Source of the DNA: an uncultured Gammaproteobacteria bacterium
GTDB taxonomy: Bacteria; Pseudomonadota; Gammaproteobacteria; Competibacterales; Competibacteraceae
DNA: 64,000 nt
Direction of reading: 5' to 3'
Assembly (NCBI GenBank): GCA_963715845.1
Contig: CAVQSJ010000036.1
Coordinates: forward strand, 47,710 to 111,709
In this document: one piece after another, positions 21,046-64,000 of the stretch
Layout of the letters: each line of letters opens with the position of its first letter
Numbering within the stretch: the first letter of the stretch is position 1
The notes under the pieces: model-generated
The model's database searches: none
Told to the model about the DNA's origin: nothing
The model's input: the letters and a program-made list of their open reading frames with translations, nothing else
Made by a program: the position numbers and the translations under genes

Positions 21046-21658
21046 CGTCCGGTTTCCTTAAACTGCCGGCGTATCTGAAGCTGTGAACGCTGGCTCGGTC
21101 GGAAATCAGTCACTTGCCTGAATTGAAAAAATTTGATTCCCGACCAATATGCTTGGTTGCATTGCATCATGGTTTCTGCTATAGGAAAATAACATTAGGA
21201 TTGAAACATAAAAACCAAACCTGCCGCGAGACAGGGGCAGAAAGTCACGGGTCTCGAACACAGACAGCCGGACTGCCGAGGATGACCAGCGTGAAGGTCG
21301 TACGAGGTAGTGCGGCTTTTTTGTTGTTGGATGAAGAAGAGTCTTTTCGATGAGACTGGCTGGGGATACTGCGATTCGGCTTTAGATGAGACTCCTAAGT
21401 GTCGCTGGCCGTCACTCCATTTGCTCTTCCCGGCTAGCGTGCTGCATAACTAAACCGTCGGAGTGTTATGCGGAAACCATATAATTATTTGTTAGGGCGG
21501 GTGGATTTTTCTCTCCATCCCGACCAACTGTCTGGGGTGGTAAGAACCGGCGCGTGGGGTGCGATAAGAGCGCCCGGCCGGTAGCAACGTGAACCCGCTG
21601 TGCGCTGTTTCAAGGCAGGGCGGCAGTTCGGAAACAGTGGTTTCTTGAAACCGCGTCA

Positions 21659-48396: not shown

Positions 48397-49084
48397 ATCG
48401 GGTCGGGCTGACGGGATTGCGCCCGTCAGCCCTCCCACACCACCGGACATGCGGTTTTCCGCATCCGGCGGTTGAGCCCAGCGGGCTTAGCCCGCGAGCA
48501 CCCACGGTAGAGTGAATTACTGATGTCTACCGTGTTGCTCATTGAACCTCTTCTGACGTCTGTGCTCGCTGTCCGCCGCGACTCGATGGGCACGTGCCGC
48601 CCCTCCGCAGGAATCCACCTGCTCGGCTTGGCCCGCCGGTCCGGGAGCTGCCGCAGTTGCCGCTCCGAACCCGTGTCGCCCGTCTCCGTGCCGCTGGGAA
48701 CGGATGCAGACTGTGGTCCTCTCGTGACTCTTCGGCCCTTCGCTCGACCGGCCTTTCGGCCGGTGTCCACACTACTACGGCCTCTGCTGACTCCTGGCAC
48801 GCTCTCACGCGTCAGGTCTCCCCGAGTAAGAACAGATACTTTCGACCCGTGCCGCCAGGCTCTACCGGATACGTCTTTCGGTGACGGTTGGATTTCGCGT
48901 TCCCTAGCACGCTCATCGCCCGTACCCGGCCTCACTGCCTGTTCGTGTTCCTGCGGTCGTGTCTTGGCTACGCCCTTCTTTCAGCTTGGCCTCGCGGCTT
49001 CCACCTTGGGTTTCGCTACGCTTCTCGTCACTCTTCGCGGTTACCTCCTCTCAGGTAACAAGTACATGCCCATGTCGGGCACAC
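48397..49084 (-). mobile_element. ORF-less bacterial group IIC intron ribozyme (domains I-VI; ~688 nt)
   Basis: On the minus strand the 5' end GUGUGCCCGACAUGGGCAUG matches the group II GUGYG + CCCxGAxAxGGG start. Internal blocks (CUUACUCGGGGAGACCUG...AGUCAGCAGAGGCCGUAGUA; GGAACACGAAC) resemble IIC introns such as the O. iheyensis intron. There are many GNRA-closed helices. Domain V is ACCGCCGGAUGCGG-AAAA-CCGCAUGUCCGGUGGU, with a 2-nt bulge and a CGC triad, and is followed by GGUGUG. Domain VI is a hairpin followed by ...GACCCGAU. No RT ORF is present on either strand. Confidence 0.55.
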
Positions 49085-49785: not shown

Positions 49786-51144
49786 TCAATCCTTCCTCGC
49801 AAGGAGTCTCGCAGTAGATACATGAGGTTTTCCAACAAATTGGTTCTTAGGTTTCGCCGGTTGCTTGGGACCTCGCTTGCTCTTTTTAAATCTCCACAGT
49901 TCTATTTTTAATGCGAAATCAATCAATAGCTGACTAACTTCTTGAGTACTTCCATCCCTGAAAACCGTCCATTCCTGATCCTCAACAATCAGGACCATGC
50001 CGGTATAAGTCGCTGAGATTTCTTCGGCAATGTAATAGTCCGAAATCTCATCATTAATGGCTTCATCGGGGTAAGCAGCACGCAACGCCGCCATCACCAC
50101 TGCATAAACATTAAAGGCCACCAGCGCCAAGCAAAACCCAAATAAAGCCGCTTTTGGATAACCGAGAGTATTGATCTCCGAATGGAAATATTTTTCTAAT
50201 TTTTGGAAAGCAGTTTCAATTCCCCAGCGGTGTCTGTAAAGCTCAGCCACTTGCAGTCCATCGACAACTTCTGGGAGAAGGTTCGTGAAGATCGCGATGG
50301 TCTTTTCTCCATCTCGGGTCGGGTTTTTTAGGTAAACAATCAGGCGCCGCGCCTCATAGGTTTGCCCCCCAGACGAACTCAGTTCGACCGGTTGTTCAAA
50401 CACCCTCCCGGTTGCACTGTTACCCACAAATTTCTCTTCAGACAATGGCTTATACGGCATATTCTGATGATGGCGAATCACGAAATACGCCCCTTTATCG
50501 TGGATCCCCCAGAGGAAATCCTGCACACAAAAATTGCGGTCAGCGATCCAAATTTCTTTCGGTTGAACCGTTTCTAAGACTTGATCCAATAATGCCCTCT
50601 CTTGCGTATAAGCATCCTCACACGGAAAAACATTGATCGCTAGCTCAACCTCAGGATCAAAAACCACTAACGATTTTCCCGGCAAAGCTCCCGCTTTCGT
50701 GCCGCGAAGAACCTGAAGACGGTGTTCCGTCTTTTCTATACAATTCCCATCTAATAATCTGACTTTGTAGCCCGGAACCCACGGCGGATTGGTTCCGTTC
50801 ATCTCGCGGATAATGCTCTCGGCTTCACCAGCAATATAGCGCACAATTCCCGCCGAGGTTTGGGTTTCAACCCCTTTCAACTTATTATAAACCGCAACCA
50901 CCGAATTACTAATGAAATCCGAATGCCGATAGGCTGCATGGACACTGTTCCGGATGCGACACACCACATGCAGCATCAAATAAACTAAGGAGGAAAACAG
51001 AATATGTCGGGTATATTGTACTTGGCAGTTGGTATTAAACCACTCATCTATTTTCTCCTTGGCTAACAGACGCTCTAATAAACCATGCACCATAACCGTG
51101 ACAGGACTCTTCTCCGAAAACTTCTGCAAAATAACTCCAAGCAT
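49786..51144 (-). CDS. DDE transposase, IS4-like superfamily (the IS spans ~49.75-51.25 kb, AT-rich)
   Basis: 452-aa ORF with ...YRHRWGIETAFQKLEKYF (the YREK-type C-terminal motif of IS4-family Tnp); a sharp GC drop across the element. Confidence 0.85.
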   Translation of the reverse strand: MLGVILQKFSEKSPVTVMVHGLLERLLAKEKIDEWFNTNCQVQYTRHILFSSLVYLMLHVVCRIRNSVHAAYRHSDFISNSVVAVYNKLKGVETQTSAGIVRYIAGEAESIIREMNGTNPPWVPGYKVRLLDGNCIEKTEHRLQVLRGTKAGALPGKSLVVFDPEVELAINVFPCEDAYTQERALLDQVLETVQPKEIWIADRNFCVQDFLWGIHDKGAYFVIRHHQNMPYKPLSEEKFVGNSATGRVFEQPVELSSSGGQTYEARRLIVYLKNPTRDGEKTIAIFTNLLPEVVDGLQVAELYRHRWGIETAFQKLEKYFHSEINTLGYPKAALFGFCLALVAFNVYAVVMAALRAAYPDEAINDEISDYYIAEEISATYTGMVLIVEDQEWTVFRDGSTQEVSQLLIDFALKIELWRFKKSKRGPKQPAKPKNQFVGKPHVSTARLLARKD

Positions 51145-51296: not shown

Positions 51297-52367
51297 GTGG
51301 AAGGGCTGAAGGTCATTGATTTTCTGACCAGAAAAAGCCAAAGCATACTCAAGGAACACGGATTTGATCCGCGCGGGGTGCCGGGGTCGGAATGCGCGGC
51401 CCTCCAGCAGATCAAGGAACCGGCCAATGTTGAAGCAAAGGCGCTGCAACCGGCGCTGGCCGCCGTTTGCAAGGACATGGGTAAAAAAGGCTTTTCCGCG
51501 GCGGACATCGAACAAGCGCGGGAAACCCTCGGCGCCAAGAAACCCTATGAACTAGCCGTGCGCTGCGTCTACATCCACCTCGACGACGTGGGGGTCAAGG
51601 AACAAAAACCGCACCGGAATAAACCGGGTGCGGCCCAAGAACCTGTTGCAGATCAAAAGGATACGGCAAAGGGTAACCGCCCGACGGTCCAAAACACGGT
51701 CGCGCACATTCAAAATGCCAACAAAAGCTTTACCTTGACGGGCCGAAGCGTCGCCGAGGTTTTACGGTTCGTCTTGGGGTTCTTGCTGAACAACGCCTTG
51801 CTGGGCCTGAATCTCAAGGTCTGCATCGATGGTCAGCGTAGCCTTCAAGATGCGATCCTCCGCTTTTTTTCATGGCACCCCCATTTGACCTTGTTGCTGG
51901 ACTGGTTCCATGTGGTCAAGAAATTCAAGGAGGACTTGAGTCTGGCGTGTAAGGGGCGGGAAATCCGCAACCGCCATCTCAAGAACCTACTGACGCTGCT
52001 GTGGTTTGGTTTGATCGACAAGGCCCAGGCGTATTTGGTGGCCATGACCGCAACGGACATCAAAGACGACCAGGCCATCGCCCGGCTCATTGCTTACTTG
52101 GAACGCAACCGCCAATGGATTCCGTGCTACGCCATGCGGAGCAAGCTGGGGTTGCCGAATTCCAGCAATCCAGTGGAACGGTGCAATAACTGGGTGACCG
52201 CCAGGCGTCAAAAACACCACGGGATGAGTGGGTCTGAAAAGGGGTCGTATGCATTGACCTCATTAGCGGCGGTCACCCTCAACAACGCAACGCGGCAATG
52301 GATAGAAAACCGCACTATCCCTTTTACGTGGGTGGTTAAAGCGGCTAAAGCGGTTAAAGCGGCTTAG
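51297..52367 (+). CDS. DDE transposase, tentatively ISKra4-like, apparently lacking its N-terminal region
   Basis: Candidate DDE residues are YIHLDDVG, CIDGQRSLQ and NPVERCNNWV. At 356 aa it is short for the family, and it starts just after the IS4-like element, which suggests disruption. The family call is from memory and is uncertain. Confidence 0.5.
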   Translation: MEGLKVIDFLTRKSQSILKEHGFDPRGVPGSECAALQQIKEPANVEAKALQPALAAVCKDMGKKGFSAADIEQARETLGAKKPYELAVRCVYIHLDDVGVKEQKPHRNKPGAAQEPVADQKDTAKGNRPTVQNTVAHIQNANKSFTLTGRSVAEVLRFVLGFLLNNALLGLNLKVCIDGQRSLQDAILRFFSWHPHLTLLLDWFHVVKKFKEDLSLACKGREIRNRHLKNLLTLLWFGLIDKAQAYLVAMTATDIKDDQAIARLIAYLERNRQWIPCYAMRSKLGLPNSSNPVERCNNWVTARRQKHHGMSGSEKGSYALTSLAAVTLNNATRQWIENRTIPFTWVVKAAKAVKAA

Positions 52368-56867: not shown

Positions 56868-58287
56868 ATGTCCCAACGTATGCAACACGCTCAAGCCCCC
56901 TGGACGCCGGCAAGCTGGCGGGACAAACCGGCGGCGCAACTGCCGGATTACGACGATGTTCCGACGCTGGCCGAGGTTGAGGAACGCTTGGCCCACTCGC
57001 TGCCGCTGGTGTTCGCGGGCGAAATTCGCACCCTGCGCCAGCAATTGACCGAGGTCGCCGCCGGTCGGGCATTCCTGCTCCAAGGCGGCGACTGCGCCGA
57101 GAGCTTCGCCGACTTCCGCGAGTCCACGATCACCGACACCTTCCGGGTGTTGTTGCAAATGGCGGTTATTTTGACCTTCGCCGCCGCCTGCCCGGTGGTC
57201 AAAGTCGGGCGGATGGCCGGGCAGTTCGCCAAGCCGCGCAGCGCGCCGACCGAAACCCGCGCCGGCGTGACCCTGCCCAGCTATCGGGGCGATATCGTCA
57301 ACGATCTCGACTTCAGCACCGGAAGCCCGCCGACCCGATCCGCGCCGGCAGTTGCGCGCCTACTCGCAGTCGGCGGCGACCTTGAACCTGCTGCGAGCGC
57401 TGGCGCAGGGAGGTTTCGCCGATCTGCACCGAGTGCAGCAATGGAATTTGGAATTTCTGCGGGCCAGTCCCCAAGGCGAACGTTACCGCGATCTCGCCAA
57501 CCGCATCAGCGAAACGCTGGCCTTCATGCGCGCCTGCGGGCTGGACACCGCCACCGATCCCCAGGTGCGGCAGGTGCAGTTCTACACTTCGCATGAGGCG
57601 TTGTTGCTGGGTTACGAACAGGCCCTGACCCGGCGCGAACCGACAACCGGCGATTGGTACGACGGCTCGGCGCATTTCCTGTGGATCGGCGAGCGCACCC
57701 GGCAACTGGACGGCGCGCACGTCGAATTCGCCCGCGGCATTGCCAATCCCATCGGTCTCAAGCTGGGGCCGACGGTTGACCCCGACACCTTGTTGCGGCT
57801 GTTGGATGCGCTGAACCCCAACGACCAGCCCGGCCGGCTGACCCTGATCAGCCGGATGGGCGCGGCCAAAATCGAAACCGCGCTGCCGCTGCTGATCCGG
57901 GCGGTTCAGCGCGAGGGCCGGCAGGTCGTGTGGTCTTGCGATCCCATGCACGGCAATACTCAGGAAGCCAGCACCGGCTACAAGACCCGCCCGTTCGTCC
58001 GCATTCTCGACGAAGTACGGCAATTCTTCGCTATCCATCGCGCCGAGGGCAGCATTCCGGGCGGGATGCACTTCGAGCTGACCGGCCAGGACGTAACCGA
58101 ATGTCTGGGGGGCGCACAGGCGATCACCGAGCAGGGTTTGGCCGACCGTTATCACACGCTCTGCGATCCACGCCTGAACGCCTCGCAAAGTCTGGAACTG
58201 GCGTTTCTGATTGCCGAGACCTTGAAGGATTACCGGCGGGCGATGCGGGTGGATGTTGATGGGACCGAGGTGGACGGCGATCCATGA
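56868..58287 (+). CDS. 3-deoxy-7-phosphoheptulonate (DAHP) synthase, class II, frame broken near 57320
   Basis: The track ORFs 56868..57596 and 57352..58287 join to give a class II AroA-like protein (...[14 protein letters not shown] | (S)[37 protein letters not shown]...). Confidence 0.75.
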
Positions 58288-59025
58288 CGCACGAACCGCC
58301 GCGCCTGTTGTTGGTGATGCAGGCCCGCGACGCCAGCGCCGGCCGGTGCGGGCGCATGTTGCGGGAACGCGGGTTACCAGATCGATTATTGCTATCCGCT
58401 GGCCGGCGAACCGCTGCCGGCGGGCATGGACGGCTACGCCGGCGCGATGGTGTTCGGCGGACCGATGAGCGCCAACGACGATGGCAAGTTGCCCGGCATC
58501 CGGGCGCAACTGGACTGGATTCCCCACGCATTGGCCTCCGGTCGGCCGTTTCTGGGGATTTGCCTGGGCGCGCAACTGCTGGCGCGGGCCTTGGGCGCGA
58601 ACGTCAAACAGCATCCGGCAGGACTGGCGGAAATCGGTTATTTCGCGGTGCGGCCGACTCCGGCGGGACAGGCGGTGTTCGACGCGCCGCTCCACGTCTA
58701 CCACTGGCACCACGAGGGCTTCGCTCTGCCGGCCGGGGCCGAACTGCTGGCGACTGGGGAACGCTTTCCACATCAGGCTTATCGCTACGGCGCCAACGCT
58801 TTCGGGGTGCAGTTCCATCCGGAGGTGCATCAGAAGATTCTCGAAGCGTGGCTGGTGGAAGGAGCGAAGGAACTGACCGCACCCGGCGCCCAGTCGGCCG
58901 CCGAACAACGCGATCACCACACCCGCCACGACGCGGCGCTGGATCGGTGGTTCGAGGGTTTTTTGGAGGGGTGGCTGCGGGCTGGTGCTACTCACTCCGC
59001 GACAAAGCCAACTCAGCCAGATTGA
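58284..59025 (+). CDS. class I glutamine amidotransferase-like protein, frame broken near 58375
   Basis: The N-terminus [16 protein letters not shown]...RMLRERG continues in another frame as [32 protein letters not shown]...GICLGAQLL (catalytic Cys). An extra t in gggttacc accounts for the shift. Confidence 0.65.
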
Positions 59026-59353
59026 TGGGAAATCGGGCGTTTTTCATACCGTTCCAAGTCAGCAGGACCATCGTTGGCTTGCTATAGTGATACTCAGCGA
59101 TTGAGTTTTGGGGGAATGGACCGCGCCTCATGCGCAGGGCAATACGAACAAAGGAGAAACAATGACTGTTCAGCAATTCCCGCTCTCTTTATTTATGCCT
59201 GCTTTTTAATAAGGCCGTTGGTGATTATAAAACAATCCAATAATAAAGACAAAAAACACCCTTAGCGTTCAGAAACGCCCAATCAACTCTAATAAACATC
59301 ACCCTGCTTTTCAGACTAAAGAAAGAGAACACAGCCTACAGACCATCGAGAGA

Positions 59354-60724
59354 CTAAGAAGTGTTGGGCTGTAAGAATCCACCACCATGTCCATAAATAA
59401 TTGCACACCATAGTGACTCCCAATTTTTAATAAAGAACTCTTTAAAGAGTCCTTTGATTTTGATCCATAACGAGGTGCGCGAATGAAAACGCTGACGAGC
59501 TGCTTGGAAAAAAGCACAGCCGTATTCCTGCACTTGATCGATTAGAAAAGCCAGCATCATCAACATCGCGAAAACCGTCGCTAAATGTTGTTCCCCATGT
59601 CCGTAGTTGTGCTCAAACTCATAGTCTTGATGCTTCAGAGTGTTAAACGTCTGGTTTTCAATATGCCAGCGACTGCGACCTCCTTTCATCACGAAGTGGA
59701 CATTACCGGCCGTGAGTTTTATTTCGGTAATCCACGAAAAGTTAAATTCTTTGCCATCGCGAATCTCCCAATAGTCGAGAAAATTGACCAGCAGATCGGG
59801 ATGCGATTTATTCAAAGGAATCTCGTTAATCCACCGATAACCACGGAGAATCTTATCCTCTCCCAACACCTCAAATGCTTCGCTTTGACCCTTCAGGACG
59901 CGATTTCTAACCGCGAGAAATAGCGATTCCTGACCCTCGGGCTTTACCGAAATAATATAACCAATATTCAATTCTTTCAATAAGTTAATGTGAGGACCGT
60001 TCGCCGATAAGCTATCTTCGACCACGCGCAAAGGCCAGGTAGGCAAGGCTTCGCGAAGCTGTTTCAAGAGGCGTTTACTCGCATTCGCTTCACAGTCATT
60101 CTTGGTCGCGCCATCTTGATGCGTAATCGCTTCAGGAAAGAGAGGTAAGACTTGATCCCGATCCGGATGAACGATAACCGCCCCTAATAATTGATGATAA
60201 TAGCTCACTTGGCCATTTTTATGATGACGAACACAACATTCTGGGCAACTGATGAGTGATGAAGAGAATTGCCCCGTCCCATCCACACTGACTAAAAAAC
60301 CATCTAAATAATGGAAACCTTCCAAAAAATTTTGATGATACAATTGCTGGTGAATTTGAATGAAGGGTGCCCGAAGTTCTGCCGGATTGACCCGATCAAG
60401 GACGGATCGAAGTTGCGTATCACAGGGGGCTTGTTCAACACCATATAATGATTTTAGATTCGCTCGAATTCGCTCCTCATTACGTTGTTCATCAAACTTC
60501 AACAAGGAGGGATATTTCAAGCCAAAGATGGCCAAACCTGACATGAGGACATCGGGTAATGAAAATTGCTGACCATAACGGCGTGGATCAGGGATCTTTT
60601 CAAAAGACCGCCGAACCTGATTGAGCAGGGCAGGCGCGGATACGTATTTATTTAAAGAGGTTAGTGAAGGGGGAGAAGTTAATTTCTTCATGATCAAACC
60701 ATACCTGATAAATTTTAAATCCAA
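59354..60724 (-). CDS. DDE transposase, IS4-like superfamily (second, unrelated copy; the IS spans ~59.1-60.8 kb, AT-rich)
   Basis: ...GGRSRWHIENQTFNTLKHQDYEFEHNYGHG C-terminal motif; the start may be at 60691 (MKKLTSPP). Confidence 0.8.
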   Translation of the reverse strand: MDLKFIRYGLIMKKLTSPPSLTSLNKYVSAPALLNQVRRSFEKIPDPRRYGQQFSLPDVLMSGLAIFGLKYPSLLKFDEQRNEERIRANLKSLYGVEQAPCDTQLRSVLDRVNPAELRAPFIQIHQQLYHQNFLEGFHYLDGFLVSVDGTGQFSSSLISCPECCVRHHKNGQVSYYHQLLGAVIVHPDRDQVLPLFPEAITHQDGATKNDCEANASKRLLKQLREALPTWPLRVVEDSLSANGPHINLLKELNIGYIISVKPEGQESLFLAVRNRVLKGQSEAFEVLGEDKILRGYRWINEIPLNKSHPDLLVNFLDYWEIRDGKEFNFSWITEIKLTAGNVHFVMKGGRSRWHIENQTFNTLKHQDYEFEHNYGHGEQHLATVFAMLMMLAFLIDQVQEYGCAFFQAARQRFHSRTSLWIKIKGLFKEFFIKNWESLWCAIIYGHGGGFLQPNTS

Positions 60725-60812
60725 AACCTCTAAAAACTCAAAATCGAGGTTAAGAAGTACCCTTTATAATATATTGATTATATAGAACTTTTCAAGAGAC
60801 CGGGAATTGCTG

Positions 60813-61277
60813 ATGACTGTTCCAGATAATTCAAGGCTAATCTTCATCAGCTACAGCCATAAGGACAAAAAGCTGTTTCAGGAATTCAAGAAAATGCTGG
60901 CACCGGCCATACAGAAAGGCGTCGTTGATCTTTGGGATGACACCAAGATTGTGCCAGGAGCGAAATGGCGGGAGGAAATTAGAGCAGCGCTCGCATCCGC
61001 CAAGGTGGCGGTTCTCCTGGTTAGCCCAGATTTTCTGGCCTCGGACTTCATTGCAAAACACGAACTGCCACCCTTGTTGAAGGCGGCAGAGCAAAAAGGC
61101 GCTACCGTCTTCTGGGTCTACTTTAGCGCTTGCCTCTACGAGCAGACAGAGATAGCCGCTTATCAGGCAGCGCACAATATCTCGAAGCCTTTGGATCAGC
61201 TACCCAAACCCAAGCGCCAAGCCGTTTTTAGTGCGGTTTGCGCAAAGCTGATCGAGCTTGCCCAAAACCCCAAGTAG
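60813..61277 (+). CDS. TIR-domain protein (bacterial TIR_2-like)
   Basis: [16 protein letters not shown]...[17 protein letters not shown]...[25 protein letters not shown]. The conserved Glu lies in the KHEL context. Confidence 0.8.
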
Positions 61278-63787
61278 GCCCATCGCCAACCATCGGCGCA
61301 GCGCCGGTGGGCCATAAAAACGCGCCCAAAATCGACCTCACCAAACTCCCCGCCGGCGCCGCCGACTTTCTTGGCCGCGAAGCTGAACTCAAGCTGCTGG
61401 ATGACGCCTGGGCCGATGTCGGCCATACCCAGGTGGTGGAACTGGTCGCGCCGGGCGGAGTCGGCAAAACCTCACTGGTCAAGCGCTGGCTGGATCGCCT
61501 CAAGGCCGAGGGCTGGCGCGGGGCACAGCGGGTGTATGGCTGGAGCTTCTTCAGTCAGGGCACGAGTGACGACCGGCAGGCGTCCGATGACAGCTTCTTG
61601 AGCGCCGCTCTCGGCTGGTTCGCGGTGGAACACGACCCTGCCCTCTCGCTCTGGGACAAGGGCAAACTCTTGGCCGACGCAGTGGCCGCCAGCCGTACCC
61701 TGCTGGTGCTGGACGGCGTGGAGCCACTGCAATACCCGCCCGGCCCGATGGCCGGTCAGTTGCGCGTCCCCAGCCTGAAGGCGTTGCTGACCCAACTGGT
61801 GAGTAGCGGCCAGCCAGGCTTGTGCATTCTCACCACCCGCGAGCGCATTCAGGACCTGGCGGAATACGAGCGCAGTAACGATCACCCCACCGGCGCGGTC
61901 GTCCGCCACGACCTGGGAAACTTAAGCGAAGCCGACGGCGCCCGGCTGCTGCACAAGCTTGGCGTCCGTCGCGCCGGCGCCGCGGACATCGCCGCCGACG
62001 ATGCCGCCGACGATGCCGAGCTGAAGCAAGCCAGCCTGGAGGTCCATGGCCACGCCCTCACCCTGAGCCTGCTCGGCAGCTTGCTCGCCGCCGCCTATGA
62101 AGGTGACATCCGCCAGCGCGACAAAGTCGAGTTCGATCAAGCCGACGACGAAACCCGAAGTGGCTACGCCTTCAAGGTCATGGCCGCCTATGAGACATGG
62201 TTCCAGCGCGAAGGCGAGCGGGGCGCTCGCGAACTGGCTACGCTGCGCTTGCTGGGCTTTTTCGACCGCCCCGCCGATACTGGTTGCTTGGCCGCCCTGC
62301 GCTGGGCCCCGCCCATTCCCGGCCTGACCGAGCCGCTGGTGGACTTGAGCACCGCCCAGTGGAACGTCACCCTAAGCCGGCTCAAAGCTTGCGGCTTGAT
62401 CGAACCGACCCAACCCGATTCGTCCGCCATCGACGCGCACCCACTGGTGCGCGAGTACCTGGCCAAGGGCTTGCGCGAGCGCCAGCCCGATGCCTGGCGC
62501 GAAGGCCACCGGCGGCTTTACGAGCACCTCAAGGCGAGCGTGCCTTACCGGCCGGAAGGACTGATCGGCCTGCAACCTCTCTACCAGGCCGTGGCCCACG
62601 GCTGCCTGGCGGGTTTGCAGCAGCAGGCTTGCGATGAGGTCTATCGCGATCGCATCCTCCGGGGAGCCGGGCATGGCGGGTACTACAGCGCAAAAAAACT
62701 CGGTGCGTTCGGCGCCGATCTGGGCGCGGTAGCCTGCTTTTTCGAGGAGCGTTGGCAGCGGCTGTCCCCGGCTCTGTCCGCAGCCGATCAAACCTGGTTG
62801 CTCAACGAGGCGGCCACCCGCCTACGCGCCCTGGGCCGGCTGACCGGGGCGCTGGAGCCGATGCGGGCGGGGTTCGATGGGGCGGTCCACCTTGAAGACT
62901 GGAAGAACGCCGCCATTCGCGCCAACAACCTGAGCGAACTGGAACTGACGCTGGGCCGGGGGGCGGCCGCGGTGCAGGATGGGGAGCAGGCGGTGGAATT
63001 CGCCGACCGCAGCGGCGATGCGTTTCTGCGCATGGTCAATCGCACAACGCTGGCGGATGCCTTGCATCAGCAGGGCCAACGCGAGCCGGTGCTGGAACGC
63101 TTCCGCGAGGCCGAAGCCATGCAGGCGCAGCAGCAGCCCGACTACCCGCTGCTCTACTCGCAGAGGGGCTTCCGCTATTGCGACCTGCTGCTGGCAGAGG
63201 CCGAGCGCGCCGCCTGGCAGCGACAACTGGCTCCCTCGCCTTGGCAGGGAGAAGGCCGGGGTGAGGGTATCGACGCCTGCCACGCCGTCGAGCAGCGGGC
63301 GGCGAAGACGCTCGACTGGTGGGTAAACCACTTTACCAACGCGCCGCTCCTCGACATCGCCCTCGACCACCTCACCCTCGGCCGCGCCACACTGCTCCGG
63401 GCCGTGCTGGACAATTCCGCATTCCGCACTCCGCATTCCGCATTAACCCAGGCCGCCAAGGAATTCGCCGACGCCGTCGACGGCCTTCGCGCCGCCGGAG
63501 ATCAGGAGTTCATCCCCCGCGCCCTCCTCACCCGCGCCTGGCTCCACGCCATCACCCACAACGCCACCGCCGCCCGCGCCGACCTGGACGAAGCCTGCCA
63601 GATCGCCTCCCGCGCCGACATGCGCCTGCACATGGCCGACATCCACCTGCACCGCGCCCGCCTGTTCCGGGACAAGGAAGAACTGAAAAAGGCCCGCGAT
63701 CTCATCGAGCAGTGCGGCTACTGGCGACGGAAGGAAGAGTTGGAAGATGCGGAGGCGGCATCGGCCCTTTGGGAAGCAAGAGAGTAG
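61238..63787 (+). CDS. NB-ARC/STAND P-loop NTPase with C-terminal TPR-like sensor repeats; may be a single ORF with the upstream TIR gene
   Basis: Walker [14 protein letters not shown] and Walker [10 protein letters not shown]. The N-terminus [24 protein letters not shown] is typical of the linker that follows an effector domain in TIR-STAND proteins. The ORF starts inside the TIR ORF in a different frame; an alternative start is the GTG at 61305. Confidence 0.8.
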
Positions 63788-63865: not shown

Positions 63866-64000
63866 ATGCCACTGCCGAAATACATCGTCCGCCTGACCAC
63901 TGAGGAGCGCACCGAACTGGAAGACCTGATTCATACCGGGAAGCGGGCCGCATCGGTGTTGATCCATGCCCGCATTTTGCTCAAGGCCGATGCCGGCGCG
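63866..64000 (+). CDS. IS630-family transposase, N-terminal HTH part (runs off the window end)
   Basis: MPLPKYIVRLTTEERTELEDLIHTGKRAASVLIHARILLKAD is typical of the IS630/Tc1-like N-terminus. Confidence 0.55.
   Translation, partial: MPLPKYIVRLTTEERTELEDLIHTGKRAASVLIHARILLKADAGA

Follow-up and report, generated by a model that had tools for sequence, protein, structure and literature searches.

Features of the locus

A window of 64,000 nucleotides (nt) was analysed from an uncultured gammaproteobacterium of the Competibacteraceae (assembly GCA_963715845.1, contig CAVQSJ010000036.1, positions 47,710 to 111,709 of the forward strand); all positions given here count from the first base of this window. 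It contains a short open reading frame (ORF) for a TIR domain, followed in the -1 frame by a long ORF for a STAND NTPase with TPR-like repeats. The junction between the two, which carries a candidate signal for -1 ribosomal frameshifting, is the subject of this study. The features involved are:

60813-61277, forward strand: TIR ORF, here the 0 frame, 154 amino acids (aa), with ATG at 60813, stop TAG at 61275-61277 and C terminus AQNPK.
61265-61271, forward strand: candidate -1 slippery heptamer A_AAC_CCC, of the form X_XXY_YYZ in the TIR frame.
61272-61276, forward strand: 5-nt spacer AAGUA; the 0-frame stop UAG is at 61275-61277.
61277-61313, forward strand: candidate stimulatory stem-loop, from folding and covariation, with 5' arm GGCCCAUCG at 61277-61285 and 3' arm CGGUGGGCC at 61305-61313.
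61271-63787, forward strand: -1-frame coding region for a linker, the KIDLTKLP...FLGRE motif, the STAND NTPase, winged-helix/helical domains and a TPR-like sensor, with stop TAG at 63785-63787.

The TIR ORF matched the Pfam families TIR_2 (E=2.4e-13, 51.1 bits, cut-off 28) and TIR (7.7e-6, 26.3 bits, cut-off 21.3), both over the curated cut-off, and its best PADLOC match was a ThsB-like TIR model (5.8e-20). Glu84, the putative catalytic residue (within KHELPP), aligned to the Glu of the NYELDG motif of AbTIR (7uwg/8g83), which we take to be catalytic, and was invariant across the 7 N-terminal domains (N-domains) compared. The original prediction for this locus, made from the sequence alone, had named a TIR domain with its catalytic-site Glu, and that assignment stands at a length of 154 aa.

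The -1 frame is free of stops from 61232 (the program-made ORF spans 61238-63787), and the public annotation starts the STAND gene at GTG 61307 (protein P0001), inside the 3' arm of the stem. Within this ORF, GGVGKT (the P-loop) occupies 61454-61471, with the Walker B motif LLVLDGVE at about 61700-61723 and the TPR-like sensor region at about 62441-63784. Pfam matches of this ORF were all below threshold, namely AAA_16 (1.7e-6, 29 bits, cut-off 32.6), NACHT (2.8e-3, 17.9 bits, cut-off 26.7) and TPR_12 (1.3e-3), and Pfam NB-ARC did not match. A PDB sequence search returned no relative, no NCBIfam model was matched, and none of the defence hidden Markov model families in PADLOC-DB 2.0, Avs included, was matched at E<=0.01; by eye, the sensor domain had earlier been judged not obviously related to well-known Avs families. 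The AlphaFold model (predicted local distance difference test, pLDDT, 89; predicted template modelling score, pTM, 0.83) had its best PDB fold matches in the STAND-TPR protein 6mfv, Apaf-1, MalT, CED-4 and a plant resistosome. At the level of the predicted fold, therefore, the original description as an NB-ARC/STAND ATPase with TPR-like repeats holds, in the form of an Apaf-1/MalT-like, NB-ARC-like STAND ATPase with a TPR-type helical sensor. GC content was 0.51 in the TIR part and 0.43 in an insertion sequence (IS) upstream of it; the locus had been called AT-richer than the core, which fits these two parts, but not the STAND part, at 0.67 above the window mean of 0.60.

Fused and split homologues

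A search with the hypothetical TIR-STAND fusion as query retrieved more than 2000 homologues. Many were single TIR-STAND-TPR proteins of 950-1000 aa that covered 97-99% of the fusion at 50-74% identity and had the same order of parts, end to end, as the window's trans-frame product. One inserted base would indeed fuse both ORFs, as had been observed earlier. In other homologues the TIR domain was replaced by a SEFIR, DUF4062, nucleoside phosphorylase, ParA-like or metallophosphatase/phosphoesterase domain, and some TIR homologues carried Pfam domains of the effector-associated domain (EAD) type (PF19955/60/62). Close STAND homologues with an N-terminal coiled-coil of about 60 aa and no enzymatic effector were also seen (P0010, P0012, P0077, P0085, P0090 and P0093).

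In the annotation of the closest STAND relatives, too, the N-domain is missing and the protein begins at the same MGH/MGQ residues. In every case their DNA held an N-domain ORF ending in TAG, then exactly 29 nt, then (A/G)TG in the -1 frame. Three unrelated types of N-domain were joined to these near-identical junctions:

TIR N-domain of 154 aa: the window and L005.
TIR N-domain of 175 aa: L001, L010 and L012.
SEFIR-like N-domain of 176 aa: L006-L009 and L011.

L005 was the one true locus in a metagenome scan with a 20-mer, in which L003 and L004 were chance matches. A scan of a genome collection with P0001 found only L002 (4001-6047), in a metagenome-assembled genome (MAG) of an uncultured gammaproteobacterium, where a degraded STAND copy lies in several frames and is a true pseudogene; an unrelated 375-aa ORF containing a TIR domain is found about 1.3 kb upstream of it.

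Beyond these relatives, most matches in a profile search with the N-domains were short TIR ORFs (about 170-177 aa) of varied origin, a few of which bore source names (Pyrinomonadaceae, Candidatus Binatia and a cyanobacterium). The 120 best matches included 77 short TIR ORFs (<=200 aa), and 62 of these had a C terminus of Asn-Pro or Asn-Pro-X, and a few ended in Gly-Pro, Asp-Pro or similar. DNA was obtained for six distant groups (L013, L015, L016, L022, L023 and L028/L029), and all six had a large STAND ORF in the -1 frame and UAG as the 0-frame stop. The full set comprised 14 distinct junctions: the window, L001, L005, L006, L010-L013, L015, L016, L022, L023, L028 and L029. Plasmid TIR homologues (Microcystis, Spirosoma and Acaryochloris) and the TIR loci examined on viral contigs lacked the heptamer, spacer and stem described below.

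Both ORFs are under purifying selection. The ratio of nonsynonymous to synonymous substitution rates (dN/dS) over the split loci was 0.14-0.25 for the N-domains and 0.25-0.43 for the STAND part, with 0.15 for the TIR ORF between the window and L005. In that pair the STAND parts were 53% identical with saturated dS, and dS of the TIR part was about 1; among independent assemblies with a nearly identical junction, STAND identity was 53-85%. The 14 distinct junctions come from independent assemblies, among them MAGs of Acidobacteriota and Binatia.

A broken gene was considered on this evidence, in which the window would carry a TIR-STAND fusion split by a frameshift mutation or an assembly indel. 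The neighbouring genes for DAHP synthase and a glutamine amidotransferase (GATase) do have frame breaks that are absent from relatives, and an IS disrupts the 5' end of the TIR gene. Against this, independent assemblies supply at least 13 further distinct junctions of identical arrangement, neither ORF is interrupted, dN/dS stays well below 1 even where STAND identity falls to 53% and dS is saturated, and a shared systematic error is implausible given the different sequencing projects and the variants of the junction. Since the same stop, offset and junction occur in independent assemblies under purifying selection, sequencing error and recent pseudogenization are excluded for the junction, and a broken gene is almost certainly the wrong explanation. 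The original prediction of a single frameshifted TIR-STAND gene was thus sound with respect to one TIR-STAND unit, for which the fused homologues speak, but a split by mutation or sequencing error is contradicted by the shared junction and by dN/dS below 1.

A conserved heptamer, spacer and stem at the junction

In the TIR frame the junction reads GCC CAA AAC CCC AAG TAG. The longest exact nucleotide run shared by the window and L005, GCCCAAAACCCCAAGTAGGCCCA (23 nt), lies here and has the heptamer inside it. The pattern X_XXY_YYZ, as X_XXC_CCY, fitted 13 of the 14 junctions in four versions (A_AAC_CCC, U_UUC_CCC, A_AAC_CCU and G_GGC_CCU), and the last base of the heptamer was only ever C or U. 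In the SEFIR-type loci U_UUC_CCC occupied the same place, beside an unrelated N-domain, and the distant groups had A_AAC_CCU, A_AAC_CCC, G_GGC_CCU and, once, the imperfect A_GAC_CCC. The G_GGC_CCU version was foretold from a C terminus ending '...VGP' and then confirmed in the DNA. The spacer from heptamer to stem was 5 nt in every junction and was unaffected by the position of the UAG, which directly followed the heptamer in 4 loci and came one codon later in 10. The 0-frame stop was UAG in all 14 junctions and never UGA or UAA, even where it fell wholly inside the spacer.

The heptamer and spacer are followed by a GC-rich stem of 9-10 bp, and the three together are referred to here as the cassette. 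Stem covariation was computed on an alignment of 12 junctions, in which 92.5% of cells of the 10-bp stem were paired, compared with 27-50% when the partners were slid. Compensatory double changes occurred in 4 stem pairs (for example C-G to U-A and A-U to G-C), and the observed covariation was reached by 0 of 500 column shuffles. Hairpin ΔG was -17 to -22 kcal/mol, and folding z-scores were -3.0 to -5.6 for the other junctions and -2.0 for the window, where an inner GC hairpin is possible within 61277-61313. A covariance model of the 12 junctions located the cassette precisely where the TIR ORF ends in the held-out loci L028 and L029, and found no further copy in about 180 kb of flanking sequence and no second copy in the window. 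Rfam had no family at the junction.

The -1 frame was free of stops through the stem-loop in all 14 junctions, among which two differences in loop length were seen, each of 3 nt. In L023, L012 and L016 the -1 frame opens just 6-12 nt ahead of the heptamer, so any shift must occur at the heptamer.

Another kind of recoding would also join the frames: ribosomes could leave the message at the Pro or Lys codon before the UAG, hop the stem-loop and resume at a matching codon downstream (bypassing), or a single tRNA could slip in the P site on C_CCY. The stop and stem-loop directly after a Pro codon resemble the take-off site of phage T4 gene 60. Bypassing in that gene is among the subjects of a review (PMC5009743). 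Several loci have a further CCC or CCG codon downstream in the -1 frame, and L023 retains only C_CCC. Bypassing or single-tRNA slippage is nevertheless very unlikely, as no stop interrupts the -1 frame across the stem-loop in any junction, the two loop differences are of 3 nt, and X_XXY_YYZ in 13 of 14 together with a 5-nt spacer is classical -1 geometry. Two further candidates were ruled out: transcriptional slippage, there being no homopolymer longer than 4, and +1 frameshifting at CCC_N, the offset being -1 in all loci.

Exchange of effectors upstream of the cassette

Downstream of the cassette at least two STAND families were found, that of the window and, in L016 and L028, one with Pfam NB-ARC, DUF7779 and TPR_10/12. 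In several loci the GC content of the N-domains was 9-13 points under that of the STAND part, which suggests exchange of effectors upstream of a retained cassette. The TIR protein P0275 has an in-frame ...ENPQEGPSLL... that resembles an in-frame version of the cassette product, and suggests evolutionary switching between frameshift-dependent and fused forms.

The lower GC of the N-domains, and the joining of three unrelated N-domain types (two TIR, one SEFIR-like) to near-identical junctions, would also be expected if the GC-rich palindrome were a DNA-level element with no role in translation, such as a site for recombination or shuffling of effector modules or an insertion resembling repetitive extragenic palindromic (REP) sequences. 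Such an element would leave unexplained how the STAND part is translated with neither start nor Shine-Dalgarno (SD) sequence, why the heptamer varies as it does and why the placement is strand-specific with respect to the frames; the covariance model also found no other copies in the 180 kb of flanking sequence. As the sole explanation it is highly improbable, though a DNA-level element and a frameshift signal are not mutually exclusive.

Start signals of the STAND ORF

No SD sequence was found before any candidate STAND start at or near the junction, including GTG 61307 of the window; weak matches were found only far downstream, at +35 in L016, +47 in L023 and +58 in L010. At the codon +12 site, L015 has GGU, with no ATG, GTG or TTG in the 67 codons before the P-loop, and L016 has GCG, its sole start candidate being a TTG beyond the FTGRE motif. 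Because there is no usable start or SD near the junction, gene callers begin the genes far downstream in L013 (548 nt) and in L015 (272 nt, beyond the P-loop).

These observations bear on a two-gene operon, in which the TIR protein would be released on its own and a STAND protein without effector would be a separate product. The STAND protein would initiate at (A/G)UG 29 nt past the stop by termination-reinitiation, with the stem hiding the start until a terminating ribosome opens it. Bacteria reportedly have two-gene systems of an effector and a STAND protein with effector-associated domains (described by Kaur, Burroughs, Iyer and Aravind), and the EAD-type domains in some TIR homologues are in keeping with this. 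The window's clade, L022 and L023 do have an NTG at codon +12, and L013 has a TTG at +11; the NTG lies in the 3' arm of the stem, and gene callers annotate two genes. However, no locus has an SD ahead of the junction NTG, L015 and L016 lack the NTG and L015 is without a start before the P-loop, neither protein of the window has an adaptor (EAD-type) domain in Pfam, and an operon leaves unexplained the four versions of the heptamer and a spacer that stays at 5 nt while the stop moves by 3 nt. We therefore regard two separately initiated genes as unlikely.

Proposed frameshifting and its products

Taken together, the junctions suggest that the TIR and STAND ORFs are probably translated as a unit, with programmed -1 ribosomal frameshifting linking the two frames. 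A ribosome in the TIR frame would reach A_AAC_CCC with the base of the GC-rich stem-loop, 5 nt downstream, at the mRNA entry channel. A fraction of ribosomes would slip one base back, tRNA-Asn from AAC to AAA and tRNA-Pro from CCC to CCC, and read the linker QVGPSP... into the STAND-TPR part, giving a TIR-STAND-TPR protein of about 991 aa, whereas ribosomes that do not slip would stop at the UAG and release a free TIR domain of 154 aa. The sequences show the conserved cassette, its covariation, selection on both ORFs and, in some relatives, the lack of an independent STAND start; that ribosomes slip at the heptamer, and how often, is inferred. By analogy, the long form would be a sensor-effector like NLR-like/Avs proteins, in which a trigger is bound by the TPR sensor, NTPase oligomerisation follows and the clustered TIR domains hydrolyse NAD+. 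NADase activity of this TIR domain is predicted from its sequence, and the immune role from the domain architecture. A possible role for the free TIR domain is to co-assemble with the sensor; alternatively, it might buffer the sensor or be a by-product.

Several points weigh against programmed -1 frameshifting. The lineages are not all independent: the 7 junctions of the window's own clade (the window, L001, L005, L006, L010, L011 and L012) share a near-identical cassette, and 5 of these 7 are at one syntenic locus (L006-L012), the contig of L001 beginning at the TIR gene and the neighbours of L005 having been left out. One of the 14 junctions, L023, has the imperfect heptamer A_GAC_CCC. In the window the minimum free energy fold favours the inner hairpin, and the z-score is only -2.0. 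The (A/G)UG 29 nt past the stop is present in the window's clade, where a STAND protein lacking the TIR domain could still arise by independent or coupled initiation. In E. coli (PMC4066793), heptamers with a CCN codon in the A site are on average weaker shifters than those with AAN or UUN, the all-pyrimidine codons CCC and CCU being the better-shifting of the CCN set.

The upstream insertion sequence and genomic context

The region around the TIR-STAND pair has the following further features:

58284-59025, forward strand: GATase gene (tblastn with the L012 orthologue), a conserved upstream neighbour in relatives, split near 58372.
59151-59156 and 59162-59171, forward strand: native SD AAGGAG and left target-site duplication ATGACTGTTC, where the TIR gene originally began, now separated from the ORF.
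59172-60812 (ends 59170/59172 to 60812/60813), reverse strand: ISNCY/IS4-like element of about 1.64 kb, with transposase ORF 59354-60724.
59170-59189 and 60794-60813: terminal inverted repeats of the IS, 20 nt, 95% (repeat search).
63866-64000, forward strand: start of an ORF, 45 aa in the window.

The IS transposase had a weak Pfam match to DDE_Tnp_1, and its relatives are annotated as ISNCY family. An IS4-like element at 59354-60724 had been proposed; an IS of the DDE_Tnp_1 superfamily is indeed present, but its relatives carry the ISNCY label and it extends beyond the ORF. The IS is flanked by a direct repeat of 7-10 bp, ATGACTGTTC, at 59162-59171 and at 60813-60822, the latter being the first ten bases of the TIR gene. 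Insertion was thus exactly at the TIR start codon and left a stub ORF of 15 codons on the left side. Removal of the IS in silico restored AAGGAG-N5-ATG, and the reconstructed upstream region aligned to the IS-free L005. The only promoter-like sites in the end of the IS are directed away from the TIR gene. Since the IS separates the TIR gene from its own SD and promoter, the locus may be poorly expressed or silent, which suggests recent silencing of a costly immune gene in this genome.

In L006-L012, which have no IS here, the pair is at the same chromosomal position, with DAHP synthase and GATase genes on one side and a Glu-Cys ligase gene on the other. In these relatives the ligase gene comes immediately after the STAND gene, in opposite orientation, and it was not seen in the 213 bases of the window past the STAND stop. 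The DAHP synthase gene (56868-58287) lies in two frames relative to the L012 orthologue, with a break near 57317; this break and that in the GATase gene are assembly indels or pseudogenes and, unlike the TIR/STAND junction, are not shared by relatives. The ORF at 63866 had been called an IS630 transposase, but it had no Pfam or plasmid match and this identity was not confirmed. The original view of the pair as a mobile defence islet bracketed by IS elements is not borne out by the relatives: given these IS-free loci and the reconstruction after IS removal, the IS elements are secondary insertions and not the vehicle of a defence islet.

Other relatives had the pair among housekeeping genes (TonB, nuo genes), and no recurrent location in defence islands or mobile elements was seen among the relatives examined. 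At L023 (7725-8522) the TIR-STAND pair adjoins a large AAA_13/AAA_23 gene (SMC-like ATPase), with PDDEXK_3 and 23S_rRNA_IVP genes nearby, and this is the only relative whose neighbourhood is possibly defence-like. An antiphage role would accordingly be read from domain architecture by analogy.

Elsewhere in the window, Rfam matched group II intron domains (RF00029, RF02001) at 48397-48473 and 48831-49001 on the reverse strand. A second DDE_Tnp_1 transposase ORF (E=3e-15) is at 49786-51144, also on the reverse strand, in an AT-rich stretch at 49-52 kb, and adjoins a 356-aa ORF (51297-52367) with no Pfam match. A c-di-GMP-I riboswitch (RF01051, 49.5 bits) is at 21204-21280 on the forward strand.

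Comparison with known systems and implications

Bacterial NLR-like/STAND immune proteins are usually treated as single polypeptides or multi-gene operons. Like Avs and other NLR-like STAND proteins, the pair combines an effector, a STAND NTPase and a helical-repeat sensor, its N-terminal effector is swapped among close homologues, and the STAND fold matches Apaf-1, MalT and STAND-TPR proteins. It differs in that effector and NTPase are in different frames, no PADLOC Avs model is matched and the relatives lack a defence-island context. The top PADLOC match links the TIR ORF to ThsB of Thoeris; however, no ThsA-type (SIR2/Macro-SLOG) partner was found at 58.5-64 kb of the window, the partner being a STAND-TPR protein, and fused TIR-STAND proteins have N-terminal domains homologous to this TIR. 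Two-gene EAD systems are similar in having a stand-alone TIR ORF beside a STAND NTPase gene, with EAD-type domains in some TIR homologues, but here no adaptor domain is present and the linker runs straight on into the STAND ORF in the -1 frame.

As a recoding signal, the cassette resembles that of E. coli dnaX (tau/gamma), which also has an X_XXY_YYZ heptamer, a short spacer and a stem-loop, and yields two products with a common N terminus at a set ratio. In contrast, dnaX relies on A_AAA_AAG, stimulated also by an SD-like sequence upstream, and frameshifting there yields the shorter product, whereas the cassette uses X_XXC_CCY and the frameshift product would be the long one, as in the logic of GagPol or IS3 orfAB. 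IS3 orfA/orfAB and the phage tail chaperone G/GT share a -1 shift near the end of a short ORF that gives a fusion with a large domain, a stop just past the site and a stem-loop. These are genes of mobile elements and phages with sites of the A_AAA_AAG or G_GGA_AAG type, whereas the genes here are chromosomal and of immune type, with Pro-codon A-site heptamers and a stop that is always UAG.

The literature search found no report of recoding or frameshifting in TIR, STAND, NLR-like or Avs genes, and term searches within the GeneTack survey (PMC3711429), the 2016 review (PMC5009743) and a 2025 preprint on frameshifting gave no such case. The mechanism class and the protein architecture are each known, and it is their conserved combination that appears to be new.

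A bolder proposal, which we put forward as doubtful, is that the cassette is a recoding signal widespread in the NLR-like immune genes of bacteria and so far overlooked, and that the frameshift is functional and not merely tolerated. The cassette would then set the ratio of free TIR to TIR-STAND, or tune it with the state of translation during infection, and the UAG (specific to release factor 1, RF1), the Pro codon in the A site and the Asn, Phe or Gly codons in the P site could be the responsive elements. The free TIR domain would amplify NAD+ destruction within sensor oligomers or, alternatively, buffer against auto-activation.

The cassette is short and portable, joining at least 3 types of N-domain to two STAND families. 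If the proposed frameshifting is true, it would explain many stand-alone short TIR ORFs that stop right after Asn-Pro, as well as the adjacent 'start-less' STAND ORFs that gene callers shorten, sometimes past the P-loop, and would offer annotation and defence-finder pipelines a concrete motif. It would also add translational recoding to the ways in which NLR-like/STAND genes are built and dosed.

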